A stretch of 64,000 nucleotides of DNA from an uncultured Actinomycetes bacterium (GTDB taxonomy: Bacteria > Actinomycetota > Actinomycetes > Mycobacteriales > SCTD01), in assembly GCA_963784675.1 (NCBI GenBank), contig CAWASE010000001.1:28449-92448 (forward strand). The letters are read 5' to 3'. A program made the position numbers and the translations under genes. The notes under the pieces are model-generated. The model searched no databases. It was not told the DNA's origin and saw nothing but the letters and a program-made list of their open reading frames with translations. Below are positions 7,079-56,153 of this stretch, in pieces. The first letter of the stretch is position 1. Each line of letters starts with the position of its first letter.

Positions 7079-7334
7079 CGGCGGTCGGGCTCCTGCGTCG
7101 TCGCTGAGTGCGGCGTGTCCCCGTGCCTTGCACTCACGAGGCCGCGGACGGCGCCGAACGCTACAGGCCGGCTCGGGCTGCGCGTCCCGTCTGACGCGGC
7201 TCCTGCTCCGGCTGCCGGGGCGGGATTGGCTGTTGCGTGGGATGCGCCCAGGCCTCCGCCCGTGAGCGCAGGACGGTGTCGTGGTCCTTGCTTCAGTCCC
7301 GCGGTGGACGACCGATCTTGTCGGTGGCCGGTTC

Positions 7335-7340
7335 TAGGTT
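7335..7340 (+). promoter_or_regulatory. Putative -10 element (TAGGTT) placed for a leaderless transcript starting at ATG 7347
   Basis: TAGGTT, then a 6-nt spacer, then ATG. No Shine-Dalgarno sequence lies between them. The second DUF222 gene (53536) has the same geometry. Confidence 0.3.
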
Positions 7341-7346
7341 GGCGTC

Positions 7347-9176
7347 ATGGGAGCAGGCGGGCGCCGGTTGGATGTTGCGGCGTTGGATGCTGCGTTGTCG
7401 GCGTTGGAGCGGTCGGGGTTGGATCGGCATGCGCTGCATGCGCGGACGTTGCGGGAGGTGCTGGAGCTGCATCGGGTGCATGTGGCGGCGGGGTGGGAGA
7501 TCGTCACGACGTCGCAGCTCGCGATGGCTCGGCAGGTGTCGGAGGATGTCGCGGCGGAGCTGTTGGGGCAGGCGCTGCTGCTGTCGTCGCTGGAGGCGGG
7601 GTTGGACTCGTTGGCCTGCGGGGTGGTGACGACGGAGCAGGCGGGGGTGCTGGCGCGGGCGTTGCTGGGCTTGGACGCTGGCGTGCAGGCGGGGGTGTGG
7701 GTGAAGGTCCTGGGCCGGTTGCGGGCGGCGCGGGTGTCGGGGGAGGTGGTGTCGCCGGCGCGGTTGGCGGCGCTGGTGGCGGGGTGGGTGATCGAGGCGG
7801 ATCCGGTGGAGGCGGAGCAGCGCCGGCAGCGGGCCGAGCAGGCGGCGCAGGTGCAGTACCGCCGGCGGCAGGACGGTTTGGTGGACTTGTTCGCGTTGGG
7901 GATCTCGGGGGTGAACGGGCGGGCGGTGCTGAGCCGGATCCGCCAGCGGTCGCAGCCGTGGGGTGCTGGCGATGACCGTCCTGTGGGCAGGCGCAGGTTG
8001 GACGCTCTCGTTGATCTGCTGCTGGGTCGGGATCAGCTGCCGCTGGACGGGGAGACCGGGGGCAGCTGCTGTCCGTGCCGGCTGACAGGAGTACCCCGGC
8101 AGGCAGCCGCGTGCGGGTGCTTGCCGGGTTCGCCGGCGCCGTGCGGGGTGCAGGTGAGCGTCCTGGTGCCGATCGGCGCCGGGCTCGGCACGACGGACGA
8201 GCTCGCGATGCTCGTCGGGCACGGTCCGTTGGACCGTGGACAGCTGCTGGACGTCCTGGCGAGCGCACCGGTGCTGCGGAGCGTGTGGGTCGACGAGCAC
8301 GGCACTCCCGTCAGTGAAGGCCGGGTGGAGCGTCCTGGCCGGGGGGATCTCGCCGGTGTCCGGCAGGCGCTGCTGCGCCTGCAGGATGCGACGCCGCCGG
8401 ACCGGCGGGAGCCGCGTCATCCGCTGGACCACCCACCCCCTCCGACCGCACCTCCACGTCGACCGCGGCAGAGGGACGTTGCGGAGCAGAACGAGCAGGA
8501 GGCGGCCGCTGGGCGTCCGCGAACACGCCTGCGCCGTCGCCGACGGTCAGAGCCGCCTGCTAGCGCTCATCCGCCGGACACGCCGGGGCCCTATCGGGTC
8601 GGGGCGGGTTTGCGACGCCTGCTGGAGGTTCGGGCGCCGCGGTGTGAGTGGCCGGCGTGCGGCGCCGCCTCGTCCAGGTGCGATGTGGATCATGATGTGG
8701 CGTGGCCGATCGGGGCGACGTGCGGCTGCAACCTCGGGCCGTTGTGCCGCCGTCATCATCGGCTCAAGCACCTGCTGCTCCACGGCCAGCCGCTCATGCG
8801 CAAGCAACGCCTGCCGGGCAACAAAGTCCGCTGGACCGACCCGACCGGCCGGGTCTTCACCTGCCCGAGCCAGCACCCGCCGCCCGCCGACACGCTGCGG
8901 CCACCGCCGCCCCTCCAGGCGCCGGTACCGGGCGACTGCACGCTCAGCGACGAAGACCTCGCCGAACAGCTGTGGCTGCTGGACCACGACGGCCAGGACC
9001 ACGACGGCCAGGACCGCACCGCCGACGGGCTCCCGTGGATGCCTACGACCCCGGACCCGCTGGACCAACCGCGAACCGACCAGGACGCGCTCGGCGAGCG
9101 CCTCCTGCTCGACCAGCGCTGGGGCTACGAGCTCGACAACCCCTACCTCTGGCTCCCGACGCCCGCCGCTGGCTGA
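7347..9176 (+). CDS. DUF222 / HNH endonuclease family protein (13E12-repeat type)
   Basis: HNH signature RCEWPACGAASSRCDVDHDVAWPIGATCGCNLGPLCRRHHRLKH near the C-terminus, with a long helical DUF222-like N-terminal region. Codon usage differs from neighbouring genes. Confidence 0.8.
   Translation: MGAGGRRLDVAALDAALSALERSGLDRHALHARTLREVLELHRVHVAAGWEIVTTSQLAMARQVSEDVAAELLGQALLLSSLEAGLDSLACGVVTTEQAGVLARALLGLDAGVQAGVWVKVLGRLRAARVSGEVVSPARLAALVAGWVIEADPVEAEQRRQRAEQAAQVQYRRRQDGLVDLFALGISGVNGRAVLSRIRQRSQPWGAGDDRPVGRRRLDALVDLLLGRDQLPLDGETGGSCCPCRLTGVPRQAAACGCLPGSPAPCGVQVSVLVPIGAGLGTTDELAMLVGHGPLDRGQLLDVLASAPVLRSVWVDEHGTPVSEGRVERPGRGDLAGVRQALLRLQDATPPDRREPRHPLDHPPPPTAPPRRPRQRDVAEQNEQEAAAGRPRTRLRRRRRSEPPASAHPPDTPGPYRVGAGLRRLLEVRAPRCEWPACGAASSRCDVDHDVAWPIGATCGCNLGPLCRRHHRLKHLLLHGQPLMRKQRLPGNKVRWTDPTGRVFTCPSQHPPPADTLRPPPPLQAPVPGDCTLSDEDLAEQLWLLDHDGQDHDGQDRTADGLPWMPTTPDPLDQPRTDQDALGERLLLDQRWGYELDNPYLWLPTPAAG
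8982..9011 (+). repeat. Perfect 15-bp x2 in-frame tandem duplication (HDGQD HDGQD)
   Basis: gaccacgacggccag occurs twice back to back inside the C-terminal tail of the HNH gene. Confidence 0.9.
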
Positions 9177-32844: not shown

Positions 32845-32886
32845 TCCGGCGCGCGCCTGTCGGCGGACGCGGCTAGCGTCGCCGGC

Positions 32887-51258: not shown

Positions 51259-52437
51259 ATGCAGTTCCAGCTGACCGACGAGCAGCGCGCCCTCCAGGAC
51301 GCGGTGCGCTCCTACCTCCGCGACCGCTTCGGACCCCAGCAGGTCCGCGCCTTCTACGAGGACGAGACCTCCGACGGCATCCCGTCCGACCTGTGGAAGG
51401 CCCTTGGCGAGCAGGGCTGGCTCGCCGTCCTCGTGCCCGAGGAGCACGACGGCATCGGCCTCGGCCTGCTCGACGCCGCCGTCCTCGCCCGCGCGTTCGG
51501 GGCCGCGACCGTGCCGGGCCCGTGGCTCGGGACGATCCTGGCCGGTGAGGCGGTGCGGCTGGCCGGCTCCGCCGAGCAGCAGGCTGCGCGGCTGCCCGGC
51601 ATCGCCGCCGGCCAGACCAAGGGGGCCGTCGCCCTGCTCAAGCCCGGTTCCACCCCGACCCCGGCGGGCGCACCCGCCACGGTGTCCGACGGTGCGCTGT
51701 CGGGCACGCTGCAGTTCGTCGAGTATGCCGAGGCGGCCGACGTCCTGGTCGTGCTCGCCGACGACGGCGTGCTGTACCTGGTCGATCCGAAGGGTGCCGG
51801 CGTCACCGTCACCGCGCTGAGCTCGCTGGACCGCACGACCCGGCTGTCGACCGTCGCGCTCGACGGCGCCGCCGGTGAGGCCCTGGCCGGCTCCACGCCA
51901 CAGGTGGTGCAGGAGCTGCTCGACCGCGCCGCCGTGCTCGTCGCCAACGATCTCGTGGGCATCGCCCGCAAGGCGATCACCGACACCGTCGAGTACGACA
52001 AGACCCGTGTGCAGTTCGGCAAGCCGGTCGGCTCCTTCCAGGCGATCAAGCACGACCTGGCCGACCTGCACATCGCGGTCACCTTCGCCGAGCACGCGGC
52101 CACCTATGCCGCACACGCCGTCGACGTCGCGGCCCCCGACGCTCCCCTCGCGGCCTCGGTCGCCAAGAGCAAGGCGGCCGACTCCTGCGACGCGGCGACC
52201 GGCGCGATGATCCAGTACCACGGCGGCATCGGCTACACGTGGGAGCACGACACGCACTTCTACTTCAAGCGCTGCAAGCGGCTGGCCGCCTCCTACGGAG
52301 ACGTCGCCCAGCACCGCGAACGCATCGCGACGCTGCTGATCGACACGGCGCCGCAGGCGTCGCTGTCGGGCGTCACCGCCGGCGGCTCGTCCGACATGCA
52401 GGGGGCCGGTGTCGCGTCGGGCGCCGCGGGCGCGTGA
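51259..52437 (+). CDS. Acyl-CoA dehydrogenase family protein (second of a pair)
   Basis: MQFQLTDEQRALQDAVRSYL...TVEYDKTRVQFGKPVGSFQAIKHDLADL...IQYHGGIGYTWEHDTHFYFKR. Lies 16 nt after the first ACAD. Confidence 0.8.
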   Translation: MQFQLTDEQRALQDAVRSYLRDRFGPQQVRAFYEDETSDGIPSDLWKALGEQGWLAVLVPEEHDGIGLGLLDAAVLARAFGAATVPGPWLGTILAGEAVRLAGSAEQQAARLPGIAAGQTKGAVALLKPGSTPTPAGAPATVSDGALSGTLQFVEYAEAADVLVVLADDGVLYLVDPKGAGVTVTALSSLDRTTRLSTVALDGAAGEALAGSTPQVVQELLDRAAVLVANDLVGIARKAITDTVEYDKTRVQFGKPVGSFQAIKHDLADLHIAVTFAEHAATYAAHAVDVAAPDAPLAASVAKSKAADSCDAATGAMIQYHGGIGYTWEHDTHFYFKRCKRLAASYGDVAQHRERIATLLIDTAPQASLSGVTAGGSSDMQGAGVASGAAGA

Positions 52438-52468
52438 GCCCGCTGCGGATGGCACGCGAGGGCGGGCG

Positions 52469-53269
52469 ATGAGCACCGCGCTCGTCACCGGCGGCGCCTC
52501 CGGCTTCGGCGCGGAGGTCGCCCGCCGGCTGGTGCGCCGCGGCGACGACGTCGTGCTCTGCGACATCGACGAGGCCGGCGGCCAGGCCGTCGCCGACGAG
52601 ATCGGCGCCACGTTCCTGCGCTGCGACGTCAGCGACTTCGACGACGTCGTCGCCGTCACCGCGGCCGCCGAGAAGGCCCTGGGCGGGCTGGACCTGGTCT
52701 TCCTCAACGCCGGCATCTCCACCGGGTGCGGCATCGCCGAGGACTTCGACCTGGCCCGCTACCGGCTGGCGAACGGCGTGAACCTGGACGGCGTCGTGTT
52801 CGGCGTGCACGCAGCCCTGCCGGCACTGCGCCGGCGCGGCGGCGGCTCGATCGTCGCCACCGCCTCGATGGCGGGCCTCACCGGCACCCCGTTCGACCCG
52901 GTGTACGGCGCCAACAAGCACGCGGTCGTGGGGCTCGTGCGCGCGCTCGGGCCGGCGCTCGCTCCGCAGGGCATCCGGATCAACGCGTTCTGCCCCGGGT
53001 TCGCGGAGACGAAGATCATCACTGACATCCGCTCGACGCTGGTGGGTTCCGGCGTGCCGATCATCCCGGTGGAGGTCGCCGGCGAGGCGGTGCTGCAGGC
53101 CTTCGACTCCGCCGAGACCGGTCAGGCCTGGCTGCTGCAGGCCGGCCGCGACGTCATGATCTACCGCTTCCGCGGCATCCCGGGGCCGTTGCAGGACGAC
53201 GGCAGCCCGGCCACCCCGGCCGAGCCCACGGGCATCCCCACCGGCATGGCCGAGCCCCCGGCGGTCTGA
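52469..53269 (+). CDS. Short-chain dehydrogenase/reductase (SDR)
   Basis: ALVTGGASGFG, LNAG, YGANKHAV. ATG 52469 chosen over the ORF track start at 52409. Confidence 0.85.
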   Translation: MSTALVTGGASGFGAEVARRLVRRGDDVVLCDIDEAGGQAVADEIGATFLRCDVSDFDDVVAVTAAAEKALGGLDLVFLNAGISTGCGIAEDFDLARYRLANGVNLDGVVFGVHAALPALRRRGGGSIVATASMAGLTGTPFDPVYGANKHAVVGLVRALGPALAPQGIRINAFCPGFAETKIITDIRSTLVGSGVPIIPVEVAGEAVLQAFDSAETGQAWLLQAGRDVMIYRFRGIPGPLQDDGSPATPAEPTGIPTGMAEPPAV

Positions 53270-53535
53270 CGGGCACCGCGGTCACCGGACCGGTCGGGCT
53301 GGGCTGAGCTGAACCGATCTTCTGACCTGTGGCTGTGGAGCGGGTGGCCTGGCTGTGAAGGCAGCCAGACACCGGTATCGATCTCGTCGCCACCGACAGG
53401 CTCACCGGTGGATGTCGACGGCCTGCCCGCCCTCGACATCCGGCCGGACCTGCACCCCTTGCGGCGGGCGCCGGCGGTTCGTCGTCATCGACCCGCACCT
53501 GCCTCGTGGCTGTTGCGGAGCCCACCCTTTGCGGC

Positions 53536-53556
53536 TAGAATCGAACACATGTTCGA
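53536..53556 (+). promoter_or_regulatory. -10 element TAGAAT overlapping a perfect LexA SOS box TCGAAC-ACAT-GTTCGA
   Basis: TAGAAT at 53536-53541. TCGAACACATGTTCGA at 53541-53556 is an exact match to the actinobacterial/mycobacterial SOS box consensus TCGAAC-N4-GTTCGA. The box centre contains ATG 53549-53551, 7 nt after the -10 element. Confidence 0.6.
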
Positions 53557-53589
53557 ACATCCCTGACCGTCGATGAGCTGGGCACCTGG

Positions 53590-54876
53590 GTGACCCAGCT
53601 GGCCGAGCTGGCACGCGACGTCACAGACGAAGAGCGGGTCGACCGGCTCCGCGTCCTGGAGCAGGTCTCCTGCGCCGTCGCTGCCGCGCAGGCTCGCGAG
53701 GCCGTCCGGCTGGACGCCTCGCGTCGAGCCGCCCGGGCGGCCGCAGGCGTGCCGGCTGCCCGGCAGGGCGAAGGGGTCGCCGCCGAGATCGGGCTGGCCC
53801 GGCGGGTGTCCCCGCACCGGGGCGCCCGGCTGCTAGGCATGGCCAAGATCCTGACGGCCGAGATGCCGCACACGCTGGCGCTGATGACCGCCGGGGCGCT
53901 CACCGAGTGGCGCGCCACCCTGCTGGTACGGGAGACCGCGTGTCTCGAGCTCGCCGACCGGCAGACCGTCGACGCCCAGCTGTGCGGCGGCCGACGACCC
54001 GATGGCGGCCGGCCTCGGCGACGCCGGGACTGGTCGCCGAGATCCGCGGGCTGGCCGCCGGCTCTGGACGCCCGTGCAGTGGCCGCCCGCGCCGCGAAGG
54101 CCGCCGCCGACCGGCACGTCAGCATCCGCCCGGCTCCGGACACGATGGCGTGGGTGTCCGCGCTGCTGCCGGTCTCCGACGGCGTCGCTGTCTACGCCGC
54201 GCTCCGCCAGGCAGCCGATACCGCCCGCAGCGACGGCGACAGGCGCAGCCGCGGGCAGGTCATGGCCGACACCCTGGTCGCTCGGGCCACCGGCCGAGAC
54301 CCGCTCGAACGTTCGGTCGACCTCGACGTCCGGGTGGTGCTGTCCGACGCCACGCTGCTCGACGGCGACGACGAACCGGCCCAGGTGTCCGGGTACGGAC
54401 CGGTCCCCGGCCCGTGGGTGCGGCGGCTGATCGCCGACGCCGCGGCAGACCCCGACGTCAACGTCTGGGTACGGCAGCTCTACGCCGCGCCGCACGGCGG
54501 CCTGACCGCCACCGCGTCCCGCTCCCGCCTGGCCCCGGCCGGCCTGGCCGAGCTGATCGCCCTCCGCGACCGGAGGTGCCGCACCCCCTGGTGCGACGCG
54601 CCTATCCGGCAGACCGACCACATCACCCCGTGGGCCGACGACGGCGCCACCGAGGCCGCCAACCTGCAGGGGCTCTGCGAACGGTGCAACCTCGCCCGCC
54701 AGGCCCCCGGCTGGCATGCCGCCGCTCCCCCGGGCCTCGGCCGTCATACCGTCGTCATCACCAGCCCCACCAGGCACACCTACGTCCCCACCGCGCCCTC
54801 GCCGCCTGGCCACCGGACCGGCCGACCCGACTTCTGTCTCGAGGCCGGCCTGCGCCGCCTGCTCTCCGCGGCCTGA
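53590..54876 (+). CDS. DUF222 / HNH endonuclease family protein (possibly frameshifted; ancestral start probably ATG 53549)
   Basis: MPHTLALMTAGALTEWRATLLVRETACL..., RPAPDTMAWVSALLPVSDGVAVYAAL, RSRGQVMADTLV, and the HNH motif RCRTPWCDAPIRQTDHITPWADDGATEAANLQGLCERCN. An internal 27-codon stretch is out of the family frame (see findings). Confidence 0.75.
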   Translation: MTQLAELARDVTDEERVDRLRVLEQVSCAVAAAQAREAVRLDASRRAARAAAGVPAARQGEGVAAEIGLARRVSPHRGARLLGMAKILTAEMPHTLALMTAGALTEWRATLLVRETACLELADRQTVDAQLCGGRRPDGGRPRRRRDWSPRSAGWPPALDARAVAARAAKAAADRHVSIRPAPDTMAWVSALLPVSDGVAVYAALRQAADTARSDGDRRSRGQVMADTLVARATGRDPLERSVDLDVRVVLSDATLLDGDDEPAQVSGYGPVPGPWVRRLIADAAADPDVNVWVRQLYAAPHGGLTATASRSRLAPAGLAELIALRDRRCRTPWCDAPIRQTDHITPWADDGATEAANLQGLCERCNLARQAPGWHAAAPPGLGRHTVVITSPTRHTYVPTAPSPPGHRTGRPDFCLEAGLRRLLSAA

Positions 54877-54974
54877 CGCTTTCGGTCACCTGGCCGGGCC
54901 ACCTCGCGGGGAACGCGACGGCTCCGGGCAACGTGCGCTGGCGGGCGTCGTCGCGCGCCGTGACGCCAGGATCC

Positions 54975-56153
54975 TTACCCAGGCGGACCGGTACGACCGG
55001 TACGCACCACCGACTCGCTCGACAGCTCGGCGGTGCTCGCGTGCCCTGCCAGGCCGGCCTGGAGGTCCAGGTCGGCCAGGAAGCAGCGCAGGACGTGCTC
55101 GACGCCCTCCTGGCCTGCCAGTGCCAGCCCGTGCACCCACGGACGGCCGAGCAGCACGGCCGCGGCGCCCAGTGCCAGGGCCTTGCAGGCGTCGGCGCCG
55201 GTGCGCACGCCGCTGTCGAACAGCACCGGCAGCTCTCCGGCGGCCTCGACGACGCCGGGCAGCGCGTCCAGCGAGCCGACGGCACCGTCGACCTGGCGCC
55301 CGCCGTGGTTGCTGCAGACGATCCCCTGCACCCCGGCGTCGAGCGCGCGGCGGGCGTCGTCGGGGTGCTGGACACCCTTGAGCACGATCGGCAGGTCGGT
55401 CTGCTCGCGCAGCCAGGCGAGGTCGTCCCAGGTGAGGGTGGGGTTGTTGAACAGACCGACGAACTTCAGCACCGCAGCGTTCTGGTCGCCCGCCGGCAGC
55501 CCCTGCTGGAACACCGGGTCGGAGAAGTAGTTCGCGACGCCCTCGGCCTGCAGGAAGGGCAGGTAGGCGGCAGACAGGTCGCGGGGTCGCCAGCCGAGCT
55601 GCCAGGTGTCCAGCGTGACGACGAGGGCGCCGTACCCCGCCCTGCCGGCCCGCTCGACGAAGGAGGCCGCCAGGTCGCGGTCCGCCGGCCAGTACAGCTG
55701 GTACCAGCGGGAGGCGTCCGGGGCGCTGGCGGCGACGTCCTCCATCGTCGTGGACGACGCGGTCGAGACGACCATCGTCAGAGCCAGCGCCGCGGCGGCG
55801 CGAGCAACGGCGCGCTCGGCGTCCGGGTGCACGATCGACAGGACGCCGACCGGGGCCAGCAGCACCGGCGCGGGCATCGTGGTGCCGAGCAGCGTCGTCT
55901 CGTGCGAGCGCTTGGCCGGGATGCCGCGCAGCATCCGCGGGACCAGGCGCCAGCGGTCGAACGCCTCCCGGTTGGCGCGCATCGTCTCCTCGCCCCCGGC
56001 GCCCCCGGCGACGTAGCCGAGCGCACCCGGGGTCATCACCGCGTGCGCGGCAGCCTCGGTCTCGCGCCAGCCGAACGGCAGGGTCGGTTGCTCACCGAAC
56101 AGGCCCTTCAGGTAGACCTCGTTCTGGAACTCGGCGAACGGCCCTGTGCTCAT
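54975..56153 (-). CDS. FMN-dependent alpha-hydroxy-acid oxidase family, lactate 2-monooxygenase-like
   Basis: GYVAGGAGGEETMRANREAF, WYQLYWP, VLKGV, VCSNHGGRQVDG, DSGVRTGAD. Confidence 0.8.
   Translation of the reverse strand: MSTGPFAEFQNEVYLKGLFGEQPTLPFGWRETEAAAHAVMTPGALGYVAGGAGGEETMRANREAFDRWRLVPRMLRGIPAKRSHETTLLGTTMPAPVLLAPVGVLSIVHPDAERAVARAAAALALTMVVSTASSTTMEDVAASAPDASRWYQLYWPADRDLAASFVERAGRAGYGALVVTLDTWQLGWRPRDLSAAYLPFLQAEGVANYFSDPVFQQGLPAGDQNAAVLKFVGLFNNPTLTWDDLAWLREQTDLPIVLKGVQHPDDARRALDAGVQGIVCSNHGGRQVDGAVGSLDALPGVVEAAGELPVLFDSGVRTGADACKALALGAAAVLLGRPWVHGLALAGQEGVEHVLRCFLADLDLQAGLAGHASTAELSSESVVRTGRTGPPG

Follow-up and report, generated by a model that had tools for sequence, protein, structure and literature searches.

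The question raised by this locus was whether a palindrome at the 5' end of an HNH endonuclease gene is an operator for LexA and, if so, what it controls. The window, which is the whole 64,000-nucleotide stretch of DNA that we analyzed, was part of contig C1 of a 4.04-Mb assembly (25 contigs, 73.2% GC). A first-pass annotation had described a perfect LexA box (SOS box) lying over the −10 element and the start codon of a DUF222/HNH endonuclease gene. We directly observed the anatomy of the sequence, a statistical excess of such boxes, conservation of the box in homologues, a LexA regulon in the same genome, and an insertion that carries the gene. The results indicated that the palindrome is very probably a LexA operator within the core promoter of a DUF222/HNH (13E12-type) endonuclease gene that was acquired horizontally. 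The features of the locus are listed in Table 1.

Table 1. Coordinates of the features at and around the HNH endonuclease gene (window positions)
Feature	Position	Strand	Basis or remark
SDR (short-chain dehydrogenase) gene	52409-53269	+	Pfam; left flank
Cassette of about 1.73 kb (upstream spacer, promoter/operator, HNH gene, 3' tail)	53270-54996	+	Missing from the same site in eight congeners
Possible −35 hexamer TTGCGG	53513-53518	+	17 nt upstream of the −10 hexamer; read from the sequence
−10 hexamer TAGAAT (TAnnnT type)	53536-53541	+	Final T (T53541) doubles as base 1 of the SOS box
Predicted LexA operator (SOS box)	53541-53556	.	TCGAAC-ACAT-GTTCGA, 12/12; kept at homologous gene starts
Box-centre ATG, predicted leaderless start and +1	53549-53566	+	Assembled frame MFEHP-stop
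Frame-slip zone, net −1 or +2	53552-53571	+	Between the box ATG and conserved D-E-L-G-T-W-V
HNH endonuclease ORF, DUF222/13E12 type	53590-54876	+	428 aa from the first canonical start, GTG 53590
Scrambled stretch, three +1 frame steps (frames 1, 2, 0, 1)	53987-54066	+	Three-frame translation versus homologues
Box-like sequence with one mismatch, TCGAACGTTCGGTCGA	54305-54320	.	Inside the HNH coding region; codes LERSVDL
HNH catalytic and zinc-finger motif CRTPWC...DH...N...CERCN	54571-54699	+	Pfam, alignment
FMN-dependent dehydrogenase gene	54975-56153	-	Pfam; right flank, convergent with SDR

Positions 53541 to 53556 read TCGAACACATGTTCGA and agreed with the palindromic consensus TCGAAC-N4-GTTCGA at all 12 specified positions, as had been claimed; with the upstream hexamer included, positions 53536 to 53556 read TAGAA-T-CGAACACATGTTCGA. 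The further claim that this was the sole perfect box in the 64 kb also held, and no perfect box appeared in 100 dinucleotide shuffles of the window. Sites with two or fewer mismatches numbered four in the window versus 1.5 expected, so only the perfect site stood out. One box-like sequence, TCGAACGTTCGGTCGA, was located within the HNH coding region; the LERSVDL peptide that it encodes was kept in close homologues, and the match is probably coincidental. In a consensus scan of the whole 4.04-Mb genome, it was one of 11 perfect boxes, and 17 additional sites had one mismatch. In comparison, ten order-1 Markov genomes contained zero or one perfect box each (about 0.1 expected). The spacer ACAT, or its reverse complement ATGT, was the commonest spacer among the perfect boxes of the genome (6 of 11), and it is the spacer found in the box under study.

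Judged from its sequence, the genome has a working-looking LexA regulon that uses the TCGAAC-N4-GTTCGA consensus. The single lexA locus (C1:229236-229876) encoded a LexA DNA-binding domain (E 5e-28) and was accompanied by two 1-mismatch boxes and a divergent LysM gene, which is the same divergent arrangement as that of Rv2719c/lexA in Mycobacterium tuberculosis. A 1-mismatch box was located 164 nt upstream of recA (C19:300514-302670). A dnaE2-type polymerase gene and a DUF6504 gene each had a perfect box upstream, and in at least six further perfect boxes an ATG or GTG opened a long ORF straight after a TAnnnT hexamer. Three of these belonged to the DUF222 paralogues at C18:14154, C2:26205, and C13:66311, in which a perfect box held the ATG or GTG after TAGTAT or TAGATT, and TTGACA or TTGACC was located 16 nt upstream. 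Each member of a second paralogue family (C12:29706, C14:214624, and C6:36891), which had no Pfam match, also had a perfect SOS box, and a beta-lactamase-fold gene had a perfect box on its GTG. These findings indicated that placing the operator on a leaderless start is the standard SOS design in this organism.

Two side observations were made on these genes. The predicted RecA protein was 718 amino acids long and contained an insert of about 370 amino acids with Cys and His-Asn/Ser splice-junction residues, as judged by eye; it is probable that recA contains an intein. Proteins of the second paralogue family started with MFDYYD... or MFDYTC... and had the motif CPWE-L-P-x-W-x-A-D-L in common. 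The C6:36891 and C14:214624 genes of this family looked frame-broken, and the break in the former was in the first few codons past the box ATG.

To place the box in its gene family, we compared it with 80 homologous loci, including loci from Nocardioides, Mycobacterium, Mycolicibacterium, Georgenia, Rhodococcus, Williamsia, Sanguibacter, and uncultured Actinomycetales. A box with two or fewer mismatches was present at the gene start in 44 of the 80 loci (20 perfect, 14 with one mismatch, and 10 with two mismatches), and in 33 of these 44 loci an ATG or GTG was found at box positions 9 to 11, in frame and with the frame open. The copies in Arthrobacter and Paenarthrobacter were mostly without a box. 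The homologous proteins mostly began with MFE or MFD, followed by about 8 to 10 variable residues and then W-V-x-x-L-A, which corresponds to W-V-T-Q-L-A when our gene is read in frame 1. The right half of the box (ATG TTC GAx) codes for Met-Phe-Glu/Asp in the homologues, and because the homologues begin with MFE or MFD from this half-site, the box ATG is predicted to be the ancestral leaderless start of the family. In the closest relative, locus L001, the hexamer was TACAAT, the box was degenerate, and the position corresponding to the box ATG was occupied by a GTG that was in frame. Only two of the box-bearing loci, L044 and L074, had an out-of-frame box ATG, and both looked like isolated breaks.

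To avoid circularity, a second set of 29 loci was chosen solely by an in-frame ATGTTCGA or GTGTTCGA. In this set, positions −8 to −3, which form the left half of the box and are non-coding, read exactly TCGAAC in 19 of the 29 loci and differed from it at no more than one base in 25. Counted from the A of the ATG, there was a T at −13 in 27 loci, an A at −12 in 28 loci, and a T at −8 in all 29. The last T of the TAnnnT hexamer was the first T of the box across the set, with fixed spacing, and the information content dropped to background on either side of the hexamer and box. When the upstream DNA of the window was compared with that of the homologous loci, similarity was confined to positions 53530 to 53557, which correspond to the −10 hexamer and the box. 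The fusion of operator, −10 hexamer, and leaderless start was family-wide and extended over several actinobacterial orders.

The predicted core promoter was largely as the first-pass annotation had described it. The TAGAAT hexamer and the box have T53541 in common, and the ATG at the box centre (53549-53551) starts after a 7-nt gap from the hexamer. A TAnnnT hexamer 6 to 8 nt before an ATG or GTG, with no Shine-Dalgarno sequence, is a leaderless-type arrangement, and this is the arrangement that was found. The candidate −35 hexamer was weak and agreed with the consensus at three of six positions; the other SOS-box promoters in the genome had TTGACA or TTGACC 16 nt before TAnnnT. A generic scan for promoters and terminators called nothing, because its −35 criterion was too strict for a 3/6 hexamer such as TTGCGG. 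We also noted a direct repeat, CACCC(C/T)TTGCGGC, at 53453-53465 and 53523-53535; the two copies are 70 nt apart, and the second copy adjoins TAGAAT.

The RecA-NDp motif, TGTC(A/G)GTG placed 8 nt before TAnnnT, was absent from this promoter, in which positions −29 to −22 read GCCCACCC. A genome scan identified six RecA-NDp motifs, all of them elsewhere. Since the motif is missing from this copy, the HNH gene at 53590-54876 is predicted to be controlled by LexA alone. In most of the Mycobacterium and Nocardioides homologues, TGTCGGTG was found 8 nt before the hexamer. The other HNH gene of the window had a RecA-NDp-type sequence, TGTCGGTG-N8-TAGGTT, 6 nt before its ATG (7319-7349), and near-identical promoter/start arrangements were located at C19:114759 and C19:804183. 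A weaker RecA-NDp-like sequence, TGTCGGCG-N8-TAGCGT followed by GTG, was located at window position 32858.

The claim that the gene is of the DUF222/HNH type stood in part. The protein matched the Pfam HNH model (PF01844) at residues 358 to 386 with an E value of 5e-7, but the Pfam DUF222 model (PF02720) gave no match to it even at an E value of 1 or less. The scrambled stretch at 53987-54066 falls within the DUF222-model region. A full-length homology search yielded 2,594 matches, the best of which was 64% identical over 96% of the query (E 3e-154), and most of the top homologues contained both PF02720 and PF01844 and were named DUF222 or HNH endonucleases. The DUF222 label was kept because of this full-length homology to proteins with PF02720 and PF01844. 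In an alignment of 17 sequences, C347, C352, H361, N375, C380, C383, and N384 were invariant; thus, the four zinc cysteines and the catalytic His and Asn were all present. The HNH frame had no in-frame stops. A sequence search of the PDB with the HNH protein returned no related solved structure, the only NCBIfam match was a weak one to IscB in the HNH region that was far below the cut-off (neither result was informative), and tblastn against the genome itself revealed no close paralogue of the HNH gene.

The first-pass annotation had called the gene a selfish nuclease, and its genomic setting fits that description, with the cassette missing from the syntenic site in eight congeners. In these eight genomes, the site between the flanking genes was empty, with 39 to 721 nt between them, and homology to the window ended at 53226-53271 and resumed at 54997-55038 (n = 8). 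No homologue at an E value of 1e-40 or less was found in 17 of 18 congeners; the remaining one had a 49% identical copy elsewhere in its genome. The cassette was present in a single copy in its own genome. A search of both ends of the cassette for terminal repeats, inverted or direct, and for a duplicated target yielded nothing convincing, and the junction alignment was too divergent for breakpoints to be placed at the level of single bases. At the syntenic site, congeners G002 (C18:2579-4796) and G006 (C6:141561-145793) contained other inserts of about 2.2 and 4.2 kb, respectively, which suggests that the intergenic site between the SDR and FMN-dependent dehydrogenase genes is a recurrent insertion spot.

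One claim failed in the assembled sequence, namely, that the HNH gene has the box ATG as its start codon. As assembled, this ATG is followed by TTC GAA CAT CCC TGA, which encodes MFEHP and then a stop (TGA 53564). The HNH frame is one base apart from the frame of the box ATG; it is open from 53539, just past a TAG at 53536-53538, to 54876, and its first ATG, GTG, or TTG is GTG 53590. The proposed leaderless geometry was right in its spacing, which was the same in the 29 homologous loci, but the ATG is out of the HNH frame as assembled. The distance from the ATG to GTG 53590 was 41 nt, versus 39 nt in the nearest homologues (Trp at residue 13), and it is because of this difference that we place a net shift of −1 or +2 between 53552 and 53571. 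Because only five codons can be read from this ATG, it may be that the full protein is not produced from this copy. A second disturbance was found at 53987-54066, through which the homologous peptide runs as LCGG, DDPMAAGLGD, GLVAEIRGLAA, and LDARAV in successive frames, with the frame restored in sum.

Similar breaks were observed in conserved genes of this assembly. The only lexA gene (C1:229236-229876) contained two single-base shifts and was spread over three reading frames; this frameshift, if real, would mean that there is no repressor. The rpoC (C15:92088-94035), dnaE1 (near C19:449023), and polA (C19:882297-882537) genes each ran over two frames. The three shifts whose site could be identified, among them the rpoC shift and the second lexA shift, were each a single inserted C. 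The uvrA, gyrA, gyrA paralogue, secA, leuS, and recA genes were intact; rpoB was not found in the assembly and gave no frameshift control. In total, at least five uncompensated indels were present in about 23 kb of conserved genes (about one per 4 to 5 kb), two of them in essential genes, and at least four indels were present in the 1.3 kb of the HNH gene. These data point to systematic indel errors in the assembly. Because the frameshifts in rpoC, dnaE1, lexA, and polA cannot all be real, we rated the 5' break of the HNH gene as likely to be an assembly indel; otherwise, it would be a real inactivating mutation. The congeners had no near-identical orthologue with which to compare the frame, the best database relative being 64% identical. 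Because essential genes of this assembly carry frameshift errors, caution is needed before a gene that looks like a pseudogene in it is called one.

The broken frame nevertheless had to be weighed as a biological feature. If the operator is genuine and the gene is a real pseudogene, the target of LexA would be no more than a 5-codon peptide or a transcript without function. We consider this alternative unlikely. In its favour, indels are denser in the HNH gene than in the conserved genes that were examined, the inserted cassette is dispensable, two other SOS-box genes (C6:36891 and C14:214624) also look frame-broken, and M. tuberculosis has several 13E12 copies with a partial annotation. However, the occurrence of similar indels (single-base insertions where identifiable) in the essential genes rpoC and dnaE1, and in lexA, implies that such indels arise as artefacts here and tend to cluster. 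Moreover, all of the HNH zinc and catalytic residues are intact, the frame has no in-frame stops, and the three internal shifts, each of +1, add up to a return to the original frame. The break might also be functional, with MFEHP-stop and a mini-ORF throttling a toxic nuclease via termination and reinitiation. The sequence would permit this, since TGA 53564 is followed by ATG 53573 (MSWAPG-stop), and the TGA of this mini-ORF overlaps GTG 53590 as GTGA (53590-53593). However, GTG 53590 lacks a preceding Shine-Dalgarno sequence, L001 as the closest relative has a GTG that is in frame, 33 of the 44 box-bearing loci have their box ATG or GTG in register with the whole protein, and the sole out-of-frame cases (L044 and L074) look like isolated breaks. 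In addition, assembly indels are demonstrable elsewhere in the genome. This functional break struck us as extremely improbable, and the programmed frameshift or mini-ORF reading was set aside for the reason that the arrangement was not conserved in homologous loci. A wider version combines a real frame break, in which the 5-codon leaderless ORF and the mini-ORF act as a brake on a toxic, damage-induced mobile nuclease, with the more general idea of a portable SOS operator that fixes Met-Phe-Glu/Asp and borrows the LexA of any actinobacterial host; as a joint reading, it is very doubtful.

An objection of a different kind concerns the palindrome itself, which could have been kept for a reason other than LexA, for example, as a recognition or recombination site of the HNH element itself or for its coding of Met-Phe-Glu. 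The palindrome does travel with the gene family, and its right half is also coding. However, the left half is conserved though it is non-coding, the same 12-base consensus is found at recA, lexA, dnaE2, and unrelated genes in the same genome, and ChIP-seq in M. tuberculosis shows LexA on 13E12 promoters (PMC3381160). We therefore regard this objection as having scarcely any chance of being correct and return to the LexA operator as the preferred reading.

The LexA operator reading leads to the following model. The promoter would consist of TTGCGG, a 17-nt spacer, and TAGAAT, with +1 at A53549, the A of the box-centre ATG, and the predicted operator covers positions −8 to +8 around this predicted transcription start. 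The mRNA of the family would be leaderless, and the right half-site would double as codons 1 to 3 (Met-Phe-Glu/Asp). In undamaged cells, a LexA dimer bound to −8 to +8 would block RNA polymerase and prevent open-complex formation. After DNA damage, RecA-stimulated self-cleavage of LexA would free the promoter and allow synthesis of the leaderless nuclease message. In this model, we infer LexA binding, the transcription start, and damage induction at the HNH gene. The first-pass annotation had proposed that LexA occludes both the promoter and the start codon. The operator does lie over the predicted start, but occlusion of the start codon is not a second mechanism; because LexA binds DNA, it merely restates that the operator covers the leaderless +1.

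The locus is a clean case, with solid statistics, of a predicted LexA operator fused to the −10 hexamer and the leaderless start of a 13E12-type gene outside mycobacteria, and the discrete cassette insertion fits the view of 13E12-type genes as selfish, damage-timed nucleases. It is a clear but ordinary new example of a published arrangement and raises no fresh question: that LexA controls 13E12/DUF222 genes, with the start inside the box, is already known in M. tuberculosis from work published from 2002 to 2012. Smollett et al. (2012; PMC3381160) reported the consensus TCGAAC(N4)GTTCGA and six LexA ChIP-seq peaks at 13E12 genes (Rv0515, Rv0336, Rv1702c, Rv2100, Rv1588c, and Rv0095c), and the first-pass annotation was correct in placing several M. 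tuberculosis 13E12 genes in the LexA regulon. Other members of the 13E12 family contain RecA_NDp (PMC3381160). In the case of Rv2100, transcription starts inside a functional SOS box, and translation probably starts from there (PMC3381160). According to a 2026 paper (PMC13157036), DNA damage and the LexA SOS response induce 13E12 proteins.

The closest known system is thus the 13E12 family of M. tuberculosis (REP13E12, DUF222/HNH; Smollett et al. 2012, PMC3381160; Davis et al. 2002), especially Rv2100, which has the same operator consensus. The HNH protein belongs to the same family by full-length homology, and the M. avium homologue is 55% identical. As in Rv2100, where the operator lies over the transcription start and translation is thought to begin there, the operator is predicted to cover the start here. 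The M. tuberculosis genes are multi-copy and sporadically distributed, a pattern to which our gene family bears a likeness, although the copy described here is single in its genome. REP13E12 elements also serve as phiRv1 attachment sites. The two systems differ in that the present host is from another actinobacterial lineage (73% GC, 4.0 Mb, uncultured-type assembly), and our copy is frame-broken in the assembly. It also lacks the RecA-NDp motif, in contrast to the many mycobacterial and Nocardioides copies that add TGTCGGTG-N8-TAnnnT. The RecA-NDp (PafBC/ClpR-linked) promoters of actinobacteria, which occur at many homologues and at the other HNH gene of the window (7319-7340), have the TAnnnT hexamer and leaderless start in common with 53536-53556, but they carry TGTCGGTG where GCCCACCC is found here at −29 to −22. 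Finally, the mycobacterial Rv3395c/imuA' and Rv1378c genes encode products unrelated to the HNH protein, but in both the operator covers +1 and the mRNA is leaderless or nearly so, as is predicted for the gene described here.
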